In this document: piece after piece, positions 5,249-60,557 of the stretch | Layout: each line of letters starts with the position of its first letter | Numbering within the stretch: the stretch's first letter is position 1 | Origin: Patescibacteria group bacterium | GTDB taxonomy: Bacteria > Patescibacteriota > WWE3 > UBA101185 > UBA10185 | Reading direction: 5' to 3' | Assembly: GCA_016926555.1 (NCBI GenBank) | Contig: JAFGOI010000004.1 | Coordinates: 168,996-232,995 of the forward strand | Length of the DNA: 64,000 nt | Position numbers and translations under genes: made by a program | The notes under the pieces: model-generated | Database searches by the model: none | What the model saw: the letters and a program-made list of their open reading frames with translations, nothing else | What the model was told of the DNA's origin: nothing

Positions 5249-6031
5249 TTAGCTTTCTTCCTCAGGTGACTTGTCCTCCAGGAGAGATTGAACTTTTTCT
5301 TTAATACCAAGAGCAAACATTATCTGCGGTTCGAGTTCTTCGATACATTTTGCCACGAGCGCTCTTTTTCTGTTGCGAAGTTCAAGTCCAACTAAACCTG
5401 CTTTTATGCCGTACCTTTCAAATATATCTTCAGCTTCTTGGGTTTCTAGGTAATAATGTGCAAAGATATTTGCAGATTTTTCTAGGCGTGAATCTGCGTA
5501 CTGTCTATAATCTCCCTCTTTTCTTGTTTGCTCGTATCTAGCGTAAGTATTAGGATACTTTTCGGGATATTTTTCATGTTGCTTTTTGTGAAAAAATTCA
5601 TGAGCTAAACTTTCAGTAAATCTTGCTTTCTCATAATTATACGAAAACGGAGTCAAGCTGGGATGCTCTGCTGCAAGCAGAAATGAAGCGACCCATGACC
5701 GGGATAGAGTAACAAACTCTCCCTTCTGGGTTTCTCCTGTTCTCGGAAATTGCGCTTCTCCATCATACAAATCCATGCCCCTATACTTTTGGCCCCCGAA
5801 ACGTTCTACACAATCCGGTATTCTGTCCCAAATCAAGTAAAAATCGGGAGGTTTCTCTATTTCTAATACGTCCTGTAACCTGCAATGATGTTCTGCAAGA
5901 TGGGAAACCAACCTTTCTTTTGCTTCTTTATTGATTCACGGGAATTCCTCGTCTAGAAATAATCTACTTCGGACCAGCTCTTTAGCTTCTTCGAACCTCT
6001 CTGCTTCGGGTGCTTGGGATTCATACTTCAT
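5249..6031 (-). pseudogene. Paralogous zincin-like HExxH protein ('LAHEFFHKKQHEKYP') interrupted by an in-frame TGA, or a split gene
   Basis: The ORF 5249..5911 (TTG start) continues in the same frame upstream to an ATG at 6029-6031. That upstream segment reads 'MKYESQAPEAERFEEAKELVRSRLFLDEEFP*' and aligns with the N-terminus of the 4470..5174 paralog ('MNYEAPPPKEVHLEETKARIAEDLKLDERFPNY'). The in-frame TGA at 5936-5938 sits exactly where the paralog has Asn. Confidence 0.4.
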
Positions 6032-38618: not shown

Positions 38619-38744
38619 CAAAATCAACCAAATCAAGTTGATTACCTTTGTGTATACGTATTCATAGGCTTGTTTCACTCCTACTATTTTCACCCTTGCG
38701 GGGCAAAAACTACGTATACTTCACTGACAACAGGAAAGTAAGTA

Positions 38745-54777: not shown

Positions 54778-55071
54778 GTGTATAATCGGAAATATCAGTA
54801 CTGTATGAAAAGCTTAACAATTACTTCCATAACCTTTGATAAAAGTTTAAAAAGCAAGATTATTAGAGCTTTCGGTAAAAAGAAAACTGCAGGTGGTTTG
54901 ATCGTAGAATCTGAATCTGAGAGACCCGTTTTAACGAAGCAGGGAGAAGAACTGCGTTTATCTGAGTTTGGTGGGATAGTAAAGGGGTCCGAGGTCTACT
55001 TAAAATCAGATATAACTTCTCTAATCGAGTTCTACGAGGATAGTGGATTATGGGATTCAGAGAATGGTTAA
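54778..55071 (+). CDS. Hypothetical protein (about 90 aa)
   Basis: ORF with no recognised domain. The probable start is ATG 54804 (MKSLTI...), with a TATAAT hexamer at 54777-54782. Confidence 0.3.
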   Translation: MYNRKYQYCMKSLTITSITFDKSLKSKIIRAFGKKKTAGGLIVESESERPVLTKQGEELRLSEFGGIVKGSEVYLKSDITSLIEFYEDSGLWDSENG

Positions 55072-55886
55072 AAGGTCTATTTAAGATCGAAAACCTCACG
55101 TTTTCACCCTCGTTTAAATTGTTTTCAGATAACCAGAAAGAGGAAAATACATACGTTTTGCATCTGGGTGGAGAAAGAACCGAGATAGATACGGAAAATC
55201 AGAAAATTATAATTTCTTCCAGGGATGTAGAAGAAAAATACCTCCCAGAGGTGCTAAATAAACACGGTATACCTATACTTGAAGATGAGTATAAAAGAGA
55301 TGGAGATGAATATGCTCTTCTCGCTAGAGATACTGGTAGTAAGGCGTTTGCAGTTGTGAACTTTTTTAATGGTATCCTAACCAATAACGATATAACAATA
55401 TTAAAGGCCGCTGTTTTTGTACGAAAGGCGAGTGCCCAGAATCCTGAGAAAGTACCAAGAATAAGGCAAGGTATCATAGATAGGTTTGGTCGATACGGTA
55501 ACAATATGTGTAATCTTTTTACAGCTGGTCACTATACAGATTGGTTTATACCAATGTATGAGGAGATGGCCAAAAGAGAGGACTTTACGAATGAGAAATT
55601 TAGAACCCTGCATGAGGATATCGTGTGGAATTATCCATTTGCTGTTTTCGTGTCGACGCATAGAAATGAGGAGGAGACTAGAGAAGAGATAGTAGATAAA
55701 ATTAACCAAATGGAGACTTACGGTATTAAGACACTTTATATACATGGTATTGGAGAGGAAAATATTAGAACAATAAGGAGAGTTGTTGATGAGCTAATTG
55801 AGGAGAAGGGTGATTACTTGCAAAAGACTGTGATTGAGGATGTCCGTTTTATATCTGTAAAGATAAGAAGAATTTCAGTTAAATAG
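55050..55886 (+). CDS. Hypothetical protein (278 aa)
   Basis: Overlaps the upstream ORF by 22 nt in another frame. No recognisable motif. Acidic and soluble. Confidence 0.4.
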   Translation: MGFREWLKGLFKIENLTFSPSFKLFSDNQKEENTYVLHLGGERTEIDTENQKIIISSRDVEEKYLPEVLNKHGIPILEDEYKRDGDEYALLARDTGSKAFAVVNFFNGILTNNDITILKAAVFVRKASAQNPEKVPRIRQGIIDRFGRYGNNMCNLFTAGHYTDWFIPMYEEMAKREDFTNEKFRTLHEDIVWNYPFAVFVSTHRNEEETREEIVDKINQMETYGIKTLYIHGIGEENIRTIRRVVDELIEEKGDYLQKTVIEDVRFISVKIRRISVK

Positions 55887-56060: not shown

Positions 56061-56858
56061 TTAGACAATTATCGTAGTAGATAAGGGGAAATGGTCAGAA
56101 ACACTATGAAATAATTCTTCCTTGTGAACAATAGTGTCTTTAGTTTTGATATCAGGTGTGTGAAATATATAATCTACCCTTACAAATGGTTCTGTGACCT
56201 TAGCGGGGAACAATTTACTTGGCATTGTTGGACTTGCACTATTGTCAGCGTCTATAAATCCGTTTTTCTTTATAACTTCAACAACTTCACATCGTTGCAT
56301 TTCGTCAATAACCGGTTTTAACTGTTTGTTTAGTTCTTTATTTTCTGCTTCAAATTGATTTCTGATTTTATTTTCGCCTTTTAAATCGGTGTTTGTGAAG
56401 GTATTTAAATCACCATGAATGATTGCTGGTTTTTTTATTTGTTCTAACAATGAACTTACTTCCCTTAGCCGTGTGTCTTCGCTTAGGTCATCGAAGTAGC
56501 ACGTATATATATTCAAATCGTCTAAAACTGTTTCAATATAGTTACGGTTAAATGCACGTATGATATTAAACTGCTTAACTTCCAAATTGGCCATTACAGC
56601 TACACCTACTTCTTTTTCTACACGTGAATCTTCCATATCAACATGAAGAACATGTTTATAACCGAAGGCTTGTTTCAGTTCCTCTATACTAAAGGTATCT
56701 TTCCACTTGAAAGTATCACACAGACCAACGTATTCAGCATTTATTGTTTTTACAGCATCTTTCAATAGTTCGAATCTATTTGTTAATTTCGAAGTCAGTT
56801 CGTAATTTTCAAAGCAACCTGACATTATGTTATAGCTAAGTAGTTTAAATGGATTCAC
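56061..56858 (-). CDS. Endonuclease/exonuclease/phosphatase (EEP) family protein
   Basis: 'LSYNIMSG' N-terminal block and the C-terminal 'SDHFPL' EEP signature. Confidence 0.7.
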   Translation of the reverse strand: MNPFKLLSYNIMSGCFENYELTSKLTNRFELLKDAVKTINAEYVGLCDTFKWKDTFSIEELKQAFGYKHVLHVDMEDSRVEKEVGVAVMANLEVKQFNIIRAFNRNYIETVLDDLNIYTCYFDDLSEDTRLREVSSLLEQIKKPAIIHGDLNTFTNTDLKGENKIRNQFEAENKELNKQLKPVIDEMQRCEVVEVIKKNGFIDADNSASPTMPSKLFPAKVTEPFVRVDYIFHTPDIKTKDTIVHKEELFHSVSDHFPLSTTIIV

Positions 56859-56874
56859 AGGAAAATTATATCAT

Positions 56875-56949
56875 TGGTGGGGGTGGAGGGGATCGAACCC
56901 TCGACACATAGCTTAAAAGGCTACTGCTCTACCACTGAGCTACACCCCC
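56875..56949 (-). tRNA. tRNA-Lys (anticodon TTT), CCA encoded
   Basis: Reverse complement folds as GGGGGTG-TA-GCTC-AGTGGTA-GAGC-A-GTAGC-CTTTTAA-GCTAT-GTGTC-GAGGG-TTCGATC-CCCTC-CACCCCC-A-CCA. Confidence 0.85.
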
Positions 56950-57015: not shown

Positions 57016-57294
57016 CTACTTTATATTGATTTTAATTGCCATTCCCTCTGTAAGTGCTTTACCGATTTTTTCGTGTGCGGATGTGATAATTCTCTGGAAA
57101 GTACTCTGTGAGATCTTCATTTGTTCTGCCGCCGCTGTTTGATTTAGCTCCTCGCAATCGGCAAGTCTGACTGCTTCTAATTCGTCATGCGAGAGTTCAA
57201 TTTCTTCCAAGTGGCGCATAGGAACACCTCTTGGTTTGTAATATGTAACCGATGGGTTAAATTGAATATGTCTGAATCTTTTTGGTCTTGGCAT
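57016..57294 (-). CDS. DUF134 (UPF0251) predicted DNA-binding protein
   Basis: 'MPRPKRFRHIQFNPSVTYYKPRGVP' N-terminal signature and a C-terminal sigma-70 region-4-like HTH ('ISQSTFQRIITSAHEKIGKAL'). Confidence 0.65.
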   Translation of the reverse strand: MPRPKRFRHIQFNPSVTYYKPRGVPMRHLEEIELSHDELEAVRLADCEELNQTAAAEQMKISQSTFQRIITSAHEKIGKALTEGMAIKINIK

Positions 57295-57354
57295 AAATGG
57301 AGTATATCAGATTTTTATATTTTTTCTGGGGCGGTAAAAACCGCCCCATATAAT

Positions 57355-57618
57355 TTATTTTTGTAGTTCGATTAAATCTTCTTCAACAGCTTTCATCTCT
57401 TCTTCAAGCATTTTTTTGTAGTCTTTTAAATATTCTAACTGGTCTTCTTTGGTAGGTGGCTTCTGCCAGAAAAATCTTCTTCCGAAACCCCTGCCGGGAC
57501 CTCTTCCAAATCCTCTACCAAAGCCACGTCCATGTGCGTAACCGTCACCACAGGGACCCATTCCTCTTCCAGTCATTGGTCCGTGACCCATAGGTCCTGT
57601 TCCGTCAAAATATGGCAT
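57355..57618 (-). CDS. DUF5320-like Gly/Arg-repeat protein
   Basis: 'MPYFDGTGPMGHGPMTGRGMGPCGDG' then 'GRGFGRGFGRGPGRGFGRR', then a coiled coil 'KEDQLEYLKDYKKMLEEEMKAVEEDLIELQK'. SD 'AGGAGG' 7 nt before the internal ATG used here. The ORF track extends to 57684. Confidence 0.55.
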   Translation of the reverse strand: MPYFDGTGPMGHGPMTGRGMGPCGDGYAHGRGFGRGFGRGPGRGFGRRFFWQKPPTKEDQLEYLKDYKKMLEEEMKAVEEDLIELQK

Positions 57619-57724
57619 ATTTAGTACCTCCTTATAATGAAATTCATACATTATGAATATATACCCATATCGTAATTTTGTCAAGATGCGGTTATTACTA
57701 ACACAAATAGAGACTAAAGTGTAT

Positions 57725-58801
57725 TTACTGCCTGAGAGAATTAATTACAGTATTGTAGGTATGTACATTGTGTATGCTCGCCAAACGGTATGCAGTAGTT
57801 TCATTGATTTTAAATAAATGATGCAAGTATGCTTTGGTATATTTTTTACATGTGGTGCAATTGCAGGATTTTGATATCGGGTTTTTATCTTTTTTATACT
57901 TTGAGCTTCCGATGTTTATTAGTTCGTATGACTCCGGATCACATAAACTTGTTAGCGAATTTCGGGCACGTTTCAAACTATACAACCGTTTGTGTCTGGC
58001 ATCTCTAGTGGGAAGTGTACAATCAAAAATTTCCCAGCCCTGTGTAAATAGTGTAACTATCTGCCAGGGAGTTCCAATTCCCAAAGCAAATTTAAAATAA
58101 TTATCAGGAATAAGTTGTGCTGTATATTCTGATATCCCATAGTCAAAGTTGCCTTTTTTATCCATCGGATAGCCGCCATAACCGTATCCATCGAAACCGA
58201 TTTCTAAAAGTTTTTCTGCGCAGTACTTACGCAGTTTTTTGTCGGAATGTCCTTGTATAACTGCCATTAGTTTTGGTCTATCATGTTGCTTCATTTGCCG
58301 TTTTGTTATCTGTTTCTCAAATTCTATTTTTGACTTTTGAGCCCATAAAATAGTTCTTTCCACAGAGTTTTTTAGTTCTTTTTTGTCAGCTTTCGGATTC
58401 GTAAAATCATCTAGACATACTATAATATCGGAACCTATTTCAAATTGGATTTTAATTGATTCTTCCGGTGTGAATAGTTTCTTTTTTTGGCCATTTTCTT
58501 GAAAATAAACACCTTCATCCGTAATTTTTCCGGATCTTTTATGTCTATAAATTAACGAAAAAATCTGCCATCCCCCCGAATCCGAAACAACCAGACCTTT
58601 ATAGTTCATAAAGCCTTTTATACCGCCAAATTTCCCTAAAACTTCCATACCGGGATTTTTCAATAGGTGGTAAGTGTTAACTACAACTCCCTCCACTTTT
58701 TTAAGATCTTCAAGGCCGAGTGATCTAATTACGCCTAAAGTCGCATCTGGTAGGTATATAGGTAGCTTGTAATTTTTTCCTTGTATGTTTATTTTGGTCA
58801 C
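57725..58801 (-). CDS. tgt: tRNA-guanine transglycosylase (queuine tRNA-ribosyltransferase)
   Basis: 'LPDATLGVIRSLG', catalytic 'VVSDSGGWQ' and zinc site 'CNCTTCKKYTKAYLHHL'. Confidence 0.85.
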   Translation of the reverse strand: MTKINIQGKNYKLPIYLPDATLGVIRSLGLEDLKKVEGVVVNTYHLLKNPGMEVLGKFGGIKGFMNYKGLVVSDSGGWQIFSLIYRHKRSGKITDEGVYFQENGQKKKLFTPEESIKIQFEIGSDIIVCLDDFTNPKADKKELKNSVERTILWAQKSKIEFEKQITKRQMKQHDRPKLMAVIQGHSDKKLRKYCAEKLLEIGFDGYGYGGYPMDKKGNFDYGISEYTAQLIPDNYFKFALGIGTPWQIVTLFTQGWEIFDCTLPTRDARHKRLYSLKRARNSLTSLCDPESYELINIGSSKYKKDKNPISKSCNCTTCKKYTKAYLHHLFKINETTAYRLASIHNVHTYNTVINSLRQ

Positions 58802-58826
58802 GAAGGGATTATATCGTATAAATTAT

Positions 58827-60557
58827 TTAAACTTTGGAAAGGATGTAGTTTCTCTTTTTTAAGAATGACAGGACTCTTTCAGCGGATTTTTCTATGCCTT
58901 CTAAGTCCGGACGAAGTTCAATTTCCGGAATCTCCGGTTTTTCGTAAGGAGCTGAGATACCGGTAAAATCTTTGATTTTACCTTCACGGGCTTTTTTGTA
59001 GTATCCCTTTTTGTCCCATTCCTCGCATATTTTTAAAGGGGTATTTACAAATACTTCAATAAAATTTGGGGTTTTCAGACGGATGCTATCCCTTTGGCTT
59101 TTATAAGGGGATATAAAAGACGCTATTACACCCACACCATTTCTGGCGAGCAACTTTGCTACAAAACCCACTCTTCTAATATTCTCGTCTCTATCCTGTT
59201 TTGTGAATCCAAGATCTTTAGTAAGACTTTCCCTAACTATATCCCCATCTAAACGTTCTATTTTTAGTTCGGCGTCTTTTAATTTGTCGTAAACAATATC
59301 GGCTATTGTACTTTTGCCCGATTGTGGAAGACCGGTAAACCACAAAACGAAACCCTCATTATTTCTGTTACTTTTATACAATTCATCAACTAAAGCATTA
59401 TCGCTATTAATGATTAGTTTGAATACTTCTGGCGCGATTAAGTACTCTTGAGGTATGTCTTTATTTTTTATAAGAGTCCTTAATGAAGTTCCACTGAATC
59501 TCACTCTATTATCTTCATGACAGTCATCAAAAAAACAATGTCTTTTATTTCGTTTATCGTAAACTACTTCGGGATATTTTAATATTTTAATGCCTATTTC
59601 TTTAGGATCGAATTGGTCAAAAATTTCATGGGCTGCAGACGGCTCGTAGAAATCACCTACACCTGCGTGGTCTCGTCCTACTATAAAATGTGTACAGCCA
59701 TAGTTTTTTCTTATAATTGCGTGAAAGACTGCTTCCCGCGGTCCTGCGTAGCGCATTTCAACCGGGAGTATCCCCAGAACCACTTTTCCTTGGGGAAGAT
59801 ATTTATCTATTAAAATCTCATAGCTTCCTATAATGTATTCGTCTTTGAAATCTTCTATTTTCTTTTCCCCAATCACTGGTTGAATAAAGAGGCCATCGGT
59901 TTGTTTTAGTGTTTCTCTTTGTAAATACTCATGTCCTTTGTGAGGTATATTTCTTGTCTGAAATGCGCCGATAGTTTTCCACCCTCTGTTTAAAAATATT
60001 TTTCGTGTTTGTTCCGGACTCATGTTGTGTTCTGGAAAGATCATTTCGTTGGTTTCCATTAGAAAGGTCTCACCTCCCAGTAAGTATTTTTTCATTTTAA
60101 GAACCTCTTCAACTCCCGGGTGTTTTTTATCCGTTGTGCCAAATACATATTTAGCTAATTCCTCTTTACTATAAGTGTAGATTTCCGGTTTTGTTAAAAC
60201 AGCCACCGGATGCTTGGTTTCTTTCGAATAGACAATCACTCTTTCGTTGTCTGAAATACGCTTTTTATCTGTTTCTGATATGTCAAGAACTATCGGGATT
60301 GTCCAAACTATTCCGTTTGCCAAACGCATGTGTTTCAAAACATTTCTATAATCCTTTTTATACAGGAATCCTGTTAAGGGAGAGTACACTCCGAGGGAAA
60401 TATTTTTTATATCTTTTATTCGCTCTGTTGATGCGTATATTTTCGGATATTTTTCAAGATTTTTGTAGTAATACTTAGATTTGTTGTAAGAAAGTACTTT
60501 ATTAATAAGTTTACCTCCGTGTGGGGTTATCATGGCATCGAAAATTATATCAGACAT
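58827..60557 (-). CDS. Bifunctional sulfate adenylyltransferase (ATP sulfurylase) / adenylylsulfate (APS) kinase
   Basis: N-terminal 'QTRNIPHKGHE' sulfurylase motifs (QTRN, HxxH). C-terminal APS kinase P-loop 'VLWFTGLPQSGKSTIA' and 'ISPYKSQRD'. Confidence 0.85.
   Translation of the reverse strand: MSDIIFDAMITPHGGKLINKVLSYNKSKYYYKNLEKYPKIYASTERIKDIKNISLGVYSPLTGFLYKKDYRNVLKHMRLANGIVWTIPIVLDISETDKKRISDNERVIVYSKETKHPVAVLTKPEIYTYSKEELAKYVFGTTDKKHPGVEEVLKMKKYLLGGETFLMETNEMIFPEHNMSPEQTRKIFLNRGWKTIGAFQTRNIPHKGHEYLQRETLKQTDGLFIQPVIGEKKIEDFKDEYIIGSYEILIDKYLPQGKVVLGILPVEMRYAGPREAVFHAIIRKNYGCTHFIVGRDHAGVGDFYEPSAAHEIFDQFDPKEIGIKILKYPEVVYDKRNKRHCFFDDCHEDNRVRFSGTSLRTLIKNKDIPQEYLIAPEVFKLIINSDNALVDELYKSNRNNEGFVLWFTGLPQSGKSTIADIVYDKLKDAELKIERLDGDIVRESLTKDLGFTKQDRDENIRRVGFVAKLLARNGVGVIASFISPYKSQRDSIRLKTPNFIEVFVNTPLKICEEWDKKGYYKKAREGKIKDFTGISAPYEKPEIPEIELRPDLEGIEKSAERVLSFLKKRNYILSKV

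Follow-up and report, generated by a model that had tools for sequence, protein, structure and literature searches.

A DUF5320-DUF134 gene pair in a Patescibacteria genome, with a probable palindrome-binding autorepressor and a possible link to metal-sulfur chemistry

CsoR-CopZ and SmtB-SmtA are pairs made up of an autoregulated metalloregulator and a small metal protein, and FUS, the hnRNPs and nucleolin are eukaryotic proteins with RGG/RG motifs. Both groups are among the known systems closest to a pair of adjacent genes, encoding proteins of the families DUF5320 and DUF134 (DUF, domain of unknown function), that was found in a 64-kb stretch of contig JAFGOI010000004.1 of a Patescibacteria group bacterium (GenBank assembly GCA_016926555.1); this whole stretch is called the window below. 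Two further described systems are close to it. The orange-protein (ORP) clusters of Desulfovibrio encode the MinD-like iron-sulfur (Fe-S) ATPases Orp3 and Orp4, the NifX-like orange protein Orp8, the Mrp/NBP35 protein Orp9 and the small protein Orp5 (PMC6345978, PMC4641369). The ORP regulator of D. vulgaris is a sigma-54 activator, DVU2106, and not a DUF134 protein (PMC4641369), and in D. alaskensis Dde_3197-3199 co-vary with feoA and flavodoxin in copper-surface transcriptomes, which is a hint only (PMC10533852). IssA of Pyrococcus furiosus combines a NifX-like domain with a disordered, cationic Gly/Arg/aromatic tail that holds the only Cys of the protein, and this tail was proposed to wrap or bind anionic thioferrate (PMC5524996).

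The two genes of the window are in tandem on the minus strand (all coordinates are positions in the window):

57355-57618, minus strand: DUF5320 coding sequence, 87 aa, ATG at 57618 and TAA at 57357-57355; an open reading frame (ORF) with a PF17253 match and a 100% identical protein at NCBI
57016-57294, minus strand: DUF134/UPF0251 coding sequence, 92 aa (MPRPKRFR...YYKPRGVP), a sigma-70 region-4-like helix-turn-helix (HTH) with three short flanking beta-strands

Family membership, fold, synteny, operator location and the covariation of the operator with the recognition helix were computed directly. A first-pass annotation made from the letters alone had placed two minus-strand ORFs at these positions and had named both families; the Pfam scan bears this out, with a match to PF17253 over profile positions 1-99 of 99 (E=1.1e-24, 87.9 bits vs a cutoff of 27) and a match to PF02001 (E=1.8e-21, 77 bits vs a cutoff of 27). 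The observation of the pair is confirmed, and the interpretation first given to it is partly supported. Both exact proteins are already held at NCBI as 'DUF5320 domain-containing protein' and 'DUF134 domain-containing protein' (Patescibacteria group bacterium), and the locus is a further case of catalogued, uncharacterised families. The mechanical DUF5320 ORF extends to a TTG at 57684 that belongs to the -35 box of the promoter; the conserved MP- N-terminus, with GGAGG 8 nt upstream of it, places the true start at the ATG at 57618.

The distribution of the pair was followed in two directions. One genome per GTDB species was scanned with the DUF5320 motif (14-sequence subset), which gave 444 confirmed sites; the best 80 loci were analysed, with DUF134 adjacency counted within 6-kb flanks of DUF5320. 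For the reverse direction 80 metagenome loci anchored on DUF134 were used. DUF134 lay within 6 kb in 55/80 of the DUF5320-anchored species loci, directly downstream on the same strand, as in the window, in 31 and directly upstream in 9. DUF5320 was present in 47/80 of the DUF134-anchored loci and stood directly upstream of DUF134 in 38. The statistics exclude adjacency by chance. The first-pass annotation had described the pair as recurrent in bacteria and archaea and had counted a lack of synteny in other genomes as evidence against it; the synteny was found in both sets. Carriers include bacteria of the Candidate Phyla Radiation (CPR), DPANN and methanogenic archaea, Spirochaetota, Clostridia, Desulfobacterota, Chloroflexota, Planctomycetota and others. 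Nine metagenome-assembled genomes labelled 'uncultured Gammaproteobacteria/Pseudomonadota/Bdellovibrionales' (L003, L004, L007, L016, L017, L020, L023, L031 and L042) are CPR-like in gene content, operator flavour and protein identity, and their taxonomic labels may be unreliable.

The upstream region of the DUF5320 gene carries the following elements:

57651-57670 (read on the minus strand as ATATGGGTAT·ATATTCATAA): 20-bp palindromic operator candidate with the -10 box of the DUF5320 promoter at its centre
57656-57684, minus strand: sigma-70-type DUF5320 promoter, with -35 TTGACA at 57684-57679, a 17-nt spacer and -10 TATATT at 57661-57656
57627-57631, minus strand: Shine-Dalgarno sequence GGAGG, 8 nt before the DUF5320 ATG

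The promoter matches the consensus at 11/12 positions, and related CPR loci have the same TTGACA-N17-TATAcT layout upstream of DUF5320, with the -10 box in the centre of the palindrome. The operator of the window has 1 mismatch to TTATGRRTANNTAYYCATAA and is the sole strong match in the 64 kb. A search of 160 loci (1.13 Mb) with the pattern TTATG[AG][AG][TC]A..T[AG][CT][CT]CATAA, at <=2 mismatches, returned 114 matches, 107 of which fall in the interval -60..+250 nt upstream from the start of DUF5320 or DUF134, against 1-4 matches in block-shuffled sequence. Positions left free by the pattern are conserved too (position 10 is T in 196/228 half-sites, and position -1 is a purine in 210/228). 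The 20-bp consensus is rTTATGrryAT·ATrryCATAAy. Where only DUF134 is present the operator stands directly before it in 17/34 loci, often at the head of a DUF134-NifX-like-...-MinD-Fer4 operon, and three archaeal loci (L024, L029 and L033) also have it.

The operator varies together with the protein. Where DUF134 residue 63 (window numbering, within S-Q/R-x-T) is Gln, base 8 of the half-site is T in 132/132 half-sites; where it is Arg, base 8 is C in 58/60. The two operator types differ at positions 7-8 only, and Gln-adenine and Arg-guanine are classical protein-DNA contacts. The link persists within one GC band (35 Q-T, 8 R-C). On a neighbour-joining tree computed with the residue-63 column left out, this residue appears to switch between Q and R ~9 times, and each time the operator switches with it; the count is an upper estimate given the noise of a tree of a 90-aa protein. 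Neither the operator nor the specificity covariation was found described in the literature searched.

Site location and covariation are good indirect evidence and suggest that DUF134 binds the palindrome. As the operator covaries with residue 63 and adjoins the DUF5320 and DUF134 starts, DUF134 is read as a self-regulating repressor, repression being deduced from the position of the site over the -10 box, and it is quite probably a palindrome-binding autorepressor. The first-pass proposal of a 'two-component regulator' was half right: what stands is a probable autoregulator, DUF134, with the DUF5320 gene as its most constant target. It is improbable that the palindrome is read by another regulator, such as a nearby Fur-family protein or DUF5320 itself, and that DUF134 does something else. 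The motif is AT-rich like Fur-type boxes, and a fur gene is present in 9/80 of the DUF5320-anchored and 3/80 of the DUF134-anchored loci, but the operator covaries with the recognition helix of DUF134 and is present in loci that have neither Fur nor DUF5320. Fur occurs in a minority of loci and the operator has an even 10+10 symmetry, against the 7-1-7 symmetry of Fur/Zur/PerR boxes, which makes a reader of the Fur type unlikely.

Some further elements were noted around the operator. Just downstream of it, in the DUF5320 5' untranslated region (57635-57650, minus strand TGTATGAATTTCATTA), a TATGAAT half-site-like element occurs with a small inverted repeat, ATAATG...CATTAT. A weak operator match with 3 mismatches at 38648-38667 is at chance level (0.84 expected per window). 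Eight Saccharibacteria/CPR-type loci (L010, L028, L035, L048, L050, L054, L062 and L069) have no Shine-Dalgarno sequence before DUF5320; they share a short stem-loop between the palindrome and the DUF5320 ATG, with the loop AAAGGUCG (GGATATAATAAAAAGGTCGATATATCC in L050), for which no Rfam match was obtained.

The two genes are separated by a 60-nt spacer containing a strong GC hairpin, and they are not simply a tight operon:

57327-57348, minus strand: GC hairpin GGGGCGG-TTTTTA-CCGCCCC, 7-9 bp, dG -18.9, z -5.3
57301-57309, minus strand: extended -10-like box TGaTATACT, the end of which is 6 nt from the DUF134 ATG; speculatively an own promoter or a leaderless start

A hairpin is found at the same position in 85% of 55 tandem pairs (median dG -24.5, median z -4.3). 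In the same pairs 71% of the DUF5320 genes and 7% of the DUF134 genes have a Shine-Dalgarno sequence of 5 nt or more, and the DUF134 gene of the window has none. The loci with a weak hairpin (L120, L132, L151 and L154) have a second palindrome before DUF134. From the conserved hairpin, the Shine-Dalgarno contrast and the second palindromes it follows that DUF5320 and DUF134 probably differ in expression level or form two separate units of expression. The hairpin may be an attenuator or a stabiliser of the mRNA 3'-end; an Rfam scan of the window region and seven related loci returned tRNAs only.

The DUF5320 protein has the layout MPYFDGTGPMGHGPMTGRGMGPCGDG...GRGFGRGFGRGPGRGFGRR...followed by a coiled coil, and is made up of three parts:

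57541-57618, minus strand, codons 1-26: invariant N-terminal motif MPxx(D/N)xTGPxGxGPxTGRGxGxC with a single conserved Cys23
57475-57531, minus strand, codons 30-48: (GRGF)x4-type RG/aromatic repeat in a cationic disordered segment
57358-57453, minus strand, codons 56-87: amphipathic C-terminal helix, which may oligomerise the protein as a coiled coil

In a 37-sequence alignment the invariant columns are P2, T7, G8, P9, G11, G13, T16, G17, G19, G21 and C23, all of which are present in the window protein, and among ORFs D/N5 (99/99), R18 (97/99) and C23 (97/99) are near-invariant. The first-pass claim that this N-terminal block is the hallmark of DUF5320 agrees with these columns. The family comprises 10,087 clusters (at 50% identity, E<=1e-3) from Bacteria and Archaea, including CPR and DPANN. 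Of the 150 best matches from 1.84 billion representatives searched, nearly every one starts at residue 1. AlphaFold2 predicted a helix at residues 57-86 with a predicted local distance difference test score (pLDDT) of ~90, in agreement with the coiled coil first proposed; in the best heptad register 7/9 a/d positions are hydrophobic. Residues 1-45 were predicted to be disordered, with pLDDT <50 for the N-terminal motif and the RG stretch, and the motif is by this model disordered on its own. A PDB sequence search with both proteins returned no solved relative, the best match being an HTH at E=0.36 and the rest coiled-coil noise.

The RG stretch had been labelled a eukaryote-like RGG repeat. 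This label does not hold, as the protein has five RG dipeptides and no RGG triplet (family medians 5 and 0), and therefore lacks an RGG box of at least three closely spaced RGG triplets. A tri-RG motif, with at least three RG spaced by 0-4 residues, is present (GRGFGRGFGRGPGRGF, four RG in 16 residues). Eukaryotic RGG/RG proteins likewise have RG repeats spaced by aromatics within disordered sequence; the DUF5320 stretch differs from them in the lack of RGG, in its length of ~20 residues, in its prokaryotic origin and in its position between a Cys motif and a coiled coil. The DNA repeat beneath the stretch is weak (12 nt, 1.9 copies).

DUF5320 was also considered as an RG-motif binder of RNA, G-quadruplexes or DNA that forms a two-protein regulator with DUF134, for example as a co-repressor whose cationic tail makes non-specific contacts. 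The net charge of +6 and 38% Gly of residues 27-50, together with the RG repeats, aromatics and disorder, would suit this, as would the similar RG tails that end longer DUF134 proteins, which are DNA binders; a motif scan flagged both the DUF5320 and the DUF134 protein of M. mazei for a quadruplex-binding-like RG motif (PMC7565180). Against this, there are zero RGG triplets, the invariant part of the family is the Cys-bearing N-terminal motif whereas the RG stretch varies in length, the neighbours are Fe-S/metal genes and not genes of RNA metabolism, and the palindrome follows DUF134 even without DUF5320. In a context dominated by Fe-S/metal genes, binding of nucleic acid is not the role of the RG stretch that fits best, and DUF5320 is unlikely to act in this way.

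The DUF134 protein was modelled as a sigma-70 region-4-like HTH, the core of which superposed on such structures, with added N- and C-terminal beta-strands that set it apart from sigma-70 region 4 and from the N-terminal HTHs of LuxR-GerE and DeoR(SorC). Its match to the sigma-70 region 4 profile PF04545 (18.9 bits) is under the gathering score of 24.1, and other HTH models were matched below threshold as well. With 57.2 bits vs a curated cutoff of 115 for NF003257 (PRK04217, the NCBIfam equivalog of one UPF0251 subgroup), the window protein by its sequence falls in the broad UPF0251 family and outside that equivalog. DUF134 is not a sigma factor because sigma region 2 is absent, the 92 aa comprising the region-4-like domain and beta-strands only. 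Its predicted 20-bp palindromic site resembles that of a classical dimeric repressor, as opposed to the -35 element of sigma region 4.

Among the structures that match DUF134 most closely, many show a sigma region 4 domain bound to a small helical anti-sigma protein. In another account of the pair, DUF5320 is an anti-sigma-like antagonist or sensor, the helix of which docks on DUF134 as NepR, RsdA and RslA dock on sigma region 4 and the Cys motif of which senses redox state or metal, with no storage or chaperone role. The invariant Cys and the helix of DUF5320, the tight adjacency of the genes and the lack of a sensor domain in the 92-aa DUF134 would all fit. The DUF5320 sequence, however, has no ZAS-type HxxxCxxC motif, its single Cys being C23; DUF5320 is found without a nearby DUF134 in 25/80 loci, and its occurrence beside NifX-like and MinD-Fer4 genes suggests other partners. 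This account too seems unlikely, about on a par with that of an RG-type nucleic-acid binder.

The neighbourhood of DUF5320 is rich in metal and Fe-S genes. Over the 80 DUF5320-anchored species loci the following were counted:

MinD-type ATPases with 4Fe-4S inserts: 51 genes in 30 loci
NifX-like Nitro_FeMo-Co proteins: 21+11 loci
Mrp/NBP35: 12 loci
Metallo-beta-lactamase-fold proteins: 12 loci
Fur: 9 loci (3/80 in the DUF134-anchored set)
YibE/F: 7 loci
ZIP: 6 loci
CDF, sometimes fused to NifX-like: 5 loci

In 30/80 loci DUF5320 is part of an ORP-type cluster, with two MinD-type 4Fe-4S ATPases, a NifX-like protein and Mrp/NBP35, often headed by DUF134; the small protein directly before the two ATPases mirrors the order Orp5-Orp4-Orp3. 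None of these cluster genes is present in the 64-kb window, and its locus is not of the ORP type. CPR-type loci have DUF134 abutting or overlapping YibE/F, ZIP or a glutaredoxin-DsbD-like membrane protein. EncFtn-like (PF22277) mini-ferritin genes lie in or beside the module in 6-7 loci (L126:3731-3999, L142, L147, L144, L021:7745-8047 and L141:5552-5803), that of L126 with its own palindrome copy immediately upstream.

A further rival account, a toxin-antitoxin-like or mobile two-gene cassette or two neighbours without a functional link, is very improbable. Two genes of ~90 aa, one encoding an HTH, with a palindrome on the promoter make up the general layout of a type II toxin-antitoxin operon. 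The DUF5320 protein, on the other hand, is Gly-rich and disordered and not a toxin fold, the pair sits inside Fe-S/metal operons across many phyla, and the adjacency statistics exclude chance. A defence or phage origin was considered and rejected, PADLOC giving no match and PHROGs weak, sigma-factor-like matches for DUF134 only.

Parts of the DUF5320 protein recur in other combinations. A widespread paralog family of 72-76 aa has the DGTGP motif and an RG stretch, followed by a 4-Cys ribbon (CxCxxCG...CxxxxCPxCG) in place of the coiled coil (L005:1368-1589, L012:1383-1589 and L068:5736-5957, plus 286 relatives); about one third of its members reach PF17253. Judged by position and description, it may be the counterpart of Orp5/Dde_3197 ([2Fe-2S]-binding), which stays a guess. 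No Desulfovibrio name was returned in the homologue search with this paralog. Longer DUF134 proteins (L005:196-672, L024:270-737, L033:692-1150, L046:3190-3720, L067:4304-4924 and L065:5197-5649) have either a C-terminal 4-Cys ribbon or a long RG/QG-rich tail ending in Cys ('GRGRGRC', 'GDGSC'; 'GRGxGxC'-type), extensions that echo the DUF5320 chemistry in cis. Some NifX-like neighbours have Gly-rich and/or coiled-coil tails.

Three further observations concern the same loci. L140 (~275-520) encodes a divergent DUF5320-like protein with many Cys (MPRCDGTGS...CC..C..CCPPC) and a coiled coil. L007 has an additional Cys-rich small ORF at 5808-5999 (MMCPHGNRKSCNFQCEYC...) behind a palindrome promoter. 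A family of membrane proteins of ~380-420 aa (L002:4922-6112, L004:7763-8893, L021:6622-7776 and L016:6812-8086; 12 species and 18 metagenome loci in all) is found repeatedly downstream of DUF134/YibE_F in CPR genomes. It has no Pfam match above threshold; its N-terminal domain weakly resembles glutaredoxin/thioredoxin, and its transmembrane part is DsbD-like.

The genes flanking the pair in the window are:

57725-58801, same strand, upstream of the pair: tgt
58827-60557, same strand, upstream of tgt: bifunctional sulfate adenylyltransferase (ATP-sulfurylase)/APS kinase
56875-56949, downstream of the pair: tRNA-Lys(UUU)

The location of the pair between tgt/ATP-sulfurylase and tRNA-Lys was correctly given in the first-pass annotation. 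The bifunctional ATP-sulfurylase/APS kinase (PUA_2 + ATP-sulfurylase + APS_kinase) is encoded by a CPR genome immediately upstream of tgt (57725-60557 for both), and the window tgt scores 287 bits, just under the bacterial Tgt equivalog cutoff of 307. Downstream of tRNA-Lys lies a 265-aa ORF (56061-56858) with a sub-threshold endonuclease/exonuclease/phosphatase match only, and adjoining it a 278-aa ORF (55050-55886) without a Pfam family.

Compared with IssA, residues 1-50 of DUF5320 have the same chemical character as the tail, and NifX-like genes lie beside DUF5320 in many loci. DUF5320 looks like an IssA tail made free-standing and oligomeric. It differs in being free-standing, in its invariant N-terminal motif and coiled coil, and in the lack of a NifX-like partner at the window locus. 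With CsoR-CopZ and SmtB-SmtA the pair shares a small HTH, an operator over the promoter of an adjacent small Cys protein and metal transporters in the neighbourhood; it differs in that the families are unrelated, neither protein has a known metal site and the gene order is target first, regulator second.

The mechanism that would join these features is as follows. A DUF134 dimer would most likely bind the 20-bp palindrome and, sitting on the -10 box of the DUF5320 promoter, would repress it in this genome; where DUF5320 is missing, the palindrome before DUF134 itself would provide for autoregulation. The main target and most constant regulated product would be DUF5320, a stand-alone, three-part protein of 80-100 aa, which may handle or sense anionic metal-sulfur species, such as Fe-S, a thioferrate-like cluster or another soft metal. 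The Cys would nucleate binding, the RG/aromatic tail would wrap the species as was proposed for the IssA tail, and the coiled coil would multimerise the protein. DUF5320 may also report the metal-sulfur state to the sensor-less DUF134, possibly by contact. That DUF5320 is a binder or sensor of metal-sulfur species is the leading but still tentative suggestion, drawn by analogy and context, and a compact self-regulated transcription module that includes such a metal-sulfur role for DUF5320 has about an even chance of being right.

Several points weigh against this reading. DUF134 is not within 6 kb in 25/80 DUF5320 loci and 38/80 GTDB loci show no palindrome at <=2 mismatches, and because of these two counts the operator model suits CPR-type and some other lineages better than all lineages. 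A search of the 64-kb window with hidden Markov models of the neighbour families found no gene for Fur, ZIP, YibE/F, a NifX-like protein, Mrp or MinD-Fer4, so that the metal link is carried over to this genome from its relatives. The likeness of DUF5320 to IssA is compositional and contextual, with no sequence homology. AlphaFold2 gave no structure for the N-terminal motif, the Met residues of which are not invariant, and the 92-aa DUF134 has no obvious ligand site. The number of independent Q/R switches is drawn from a noisy tree. In the literature searched no experiment was found on DUF134 or DUF5320.

Three readings of single elements were set aside. A Met-rich motif as a Cu(I) site remains only a lead, as the Met positions become L/F/V or R/K in many members. 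The spacer hairpin is not a canonical terminator, since it has no sense-strand U-tract and is terminator-like on the plus strand only. A leaderless DUF134 mRNA (+1 at the A of ATG) is not a general feature, a -10-like box at 6-nt spacing being found in 5/55 relatives. The last two count against the reading set out above as well.

Both families go back to the early days of genome annotation and continue to be listed as of 'unknown function', and both are kept in the tiny CPR and DPANN genomes, which hold few regulators. An operator, a specificity residue (Gln/Arg 63 vs base 8) and a target gene now make what was a 'DUF next to DUF' directly testable. It is conceivable, though rather doubtful, that the pair represents a very widespread unrecognised switch, in which a minimal sigma-4-like repressor that reads a defined 20-bp palindrome is combined with a disordered Cys/RG coiled-coil protein, a free-standing IssA tail, that would act in trans as a sensor or store of metal-sulfide species and report back. 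If the Fe-S/metal-sulfide link is true, the ORP/NifX-like/MinD-Fer4 clusters of anaerobes would gain their missing regulator, and DUF5320 would be a prokaryotic case of a functional cationic disordered region.

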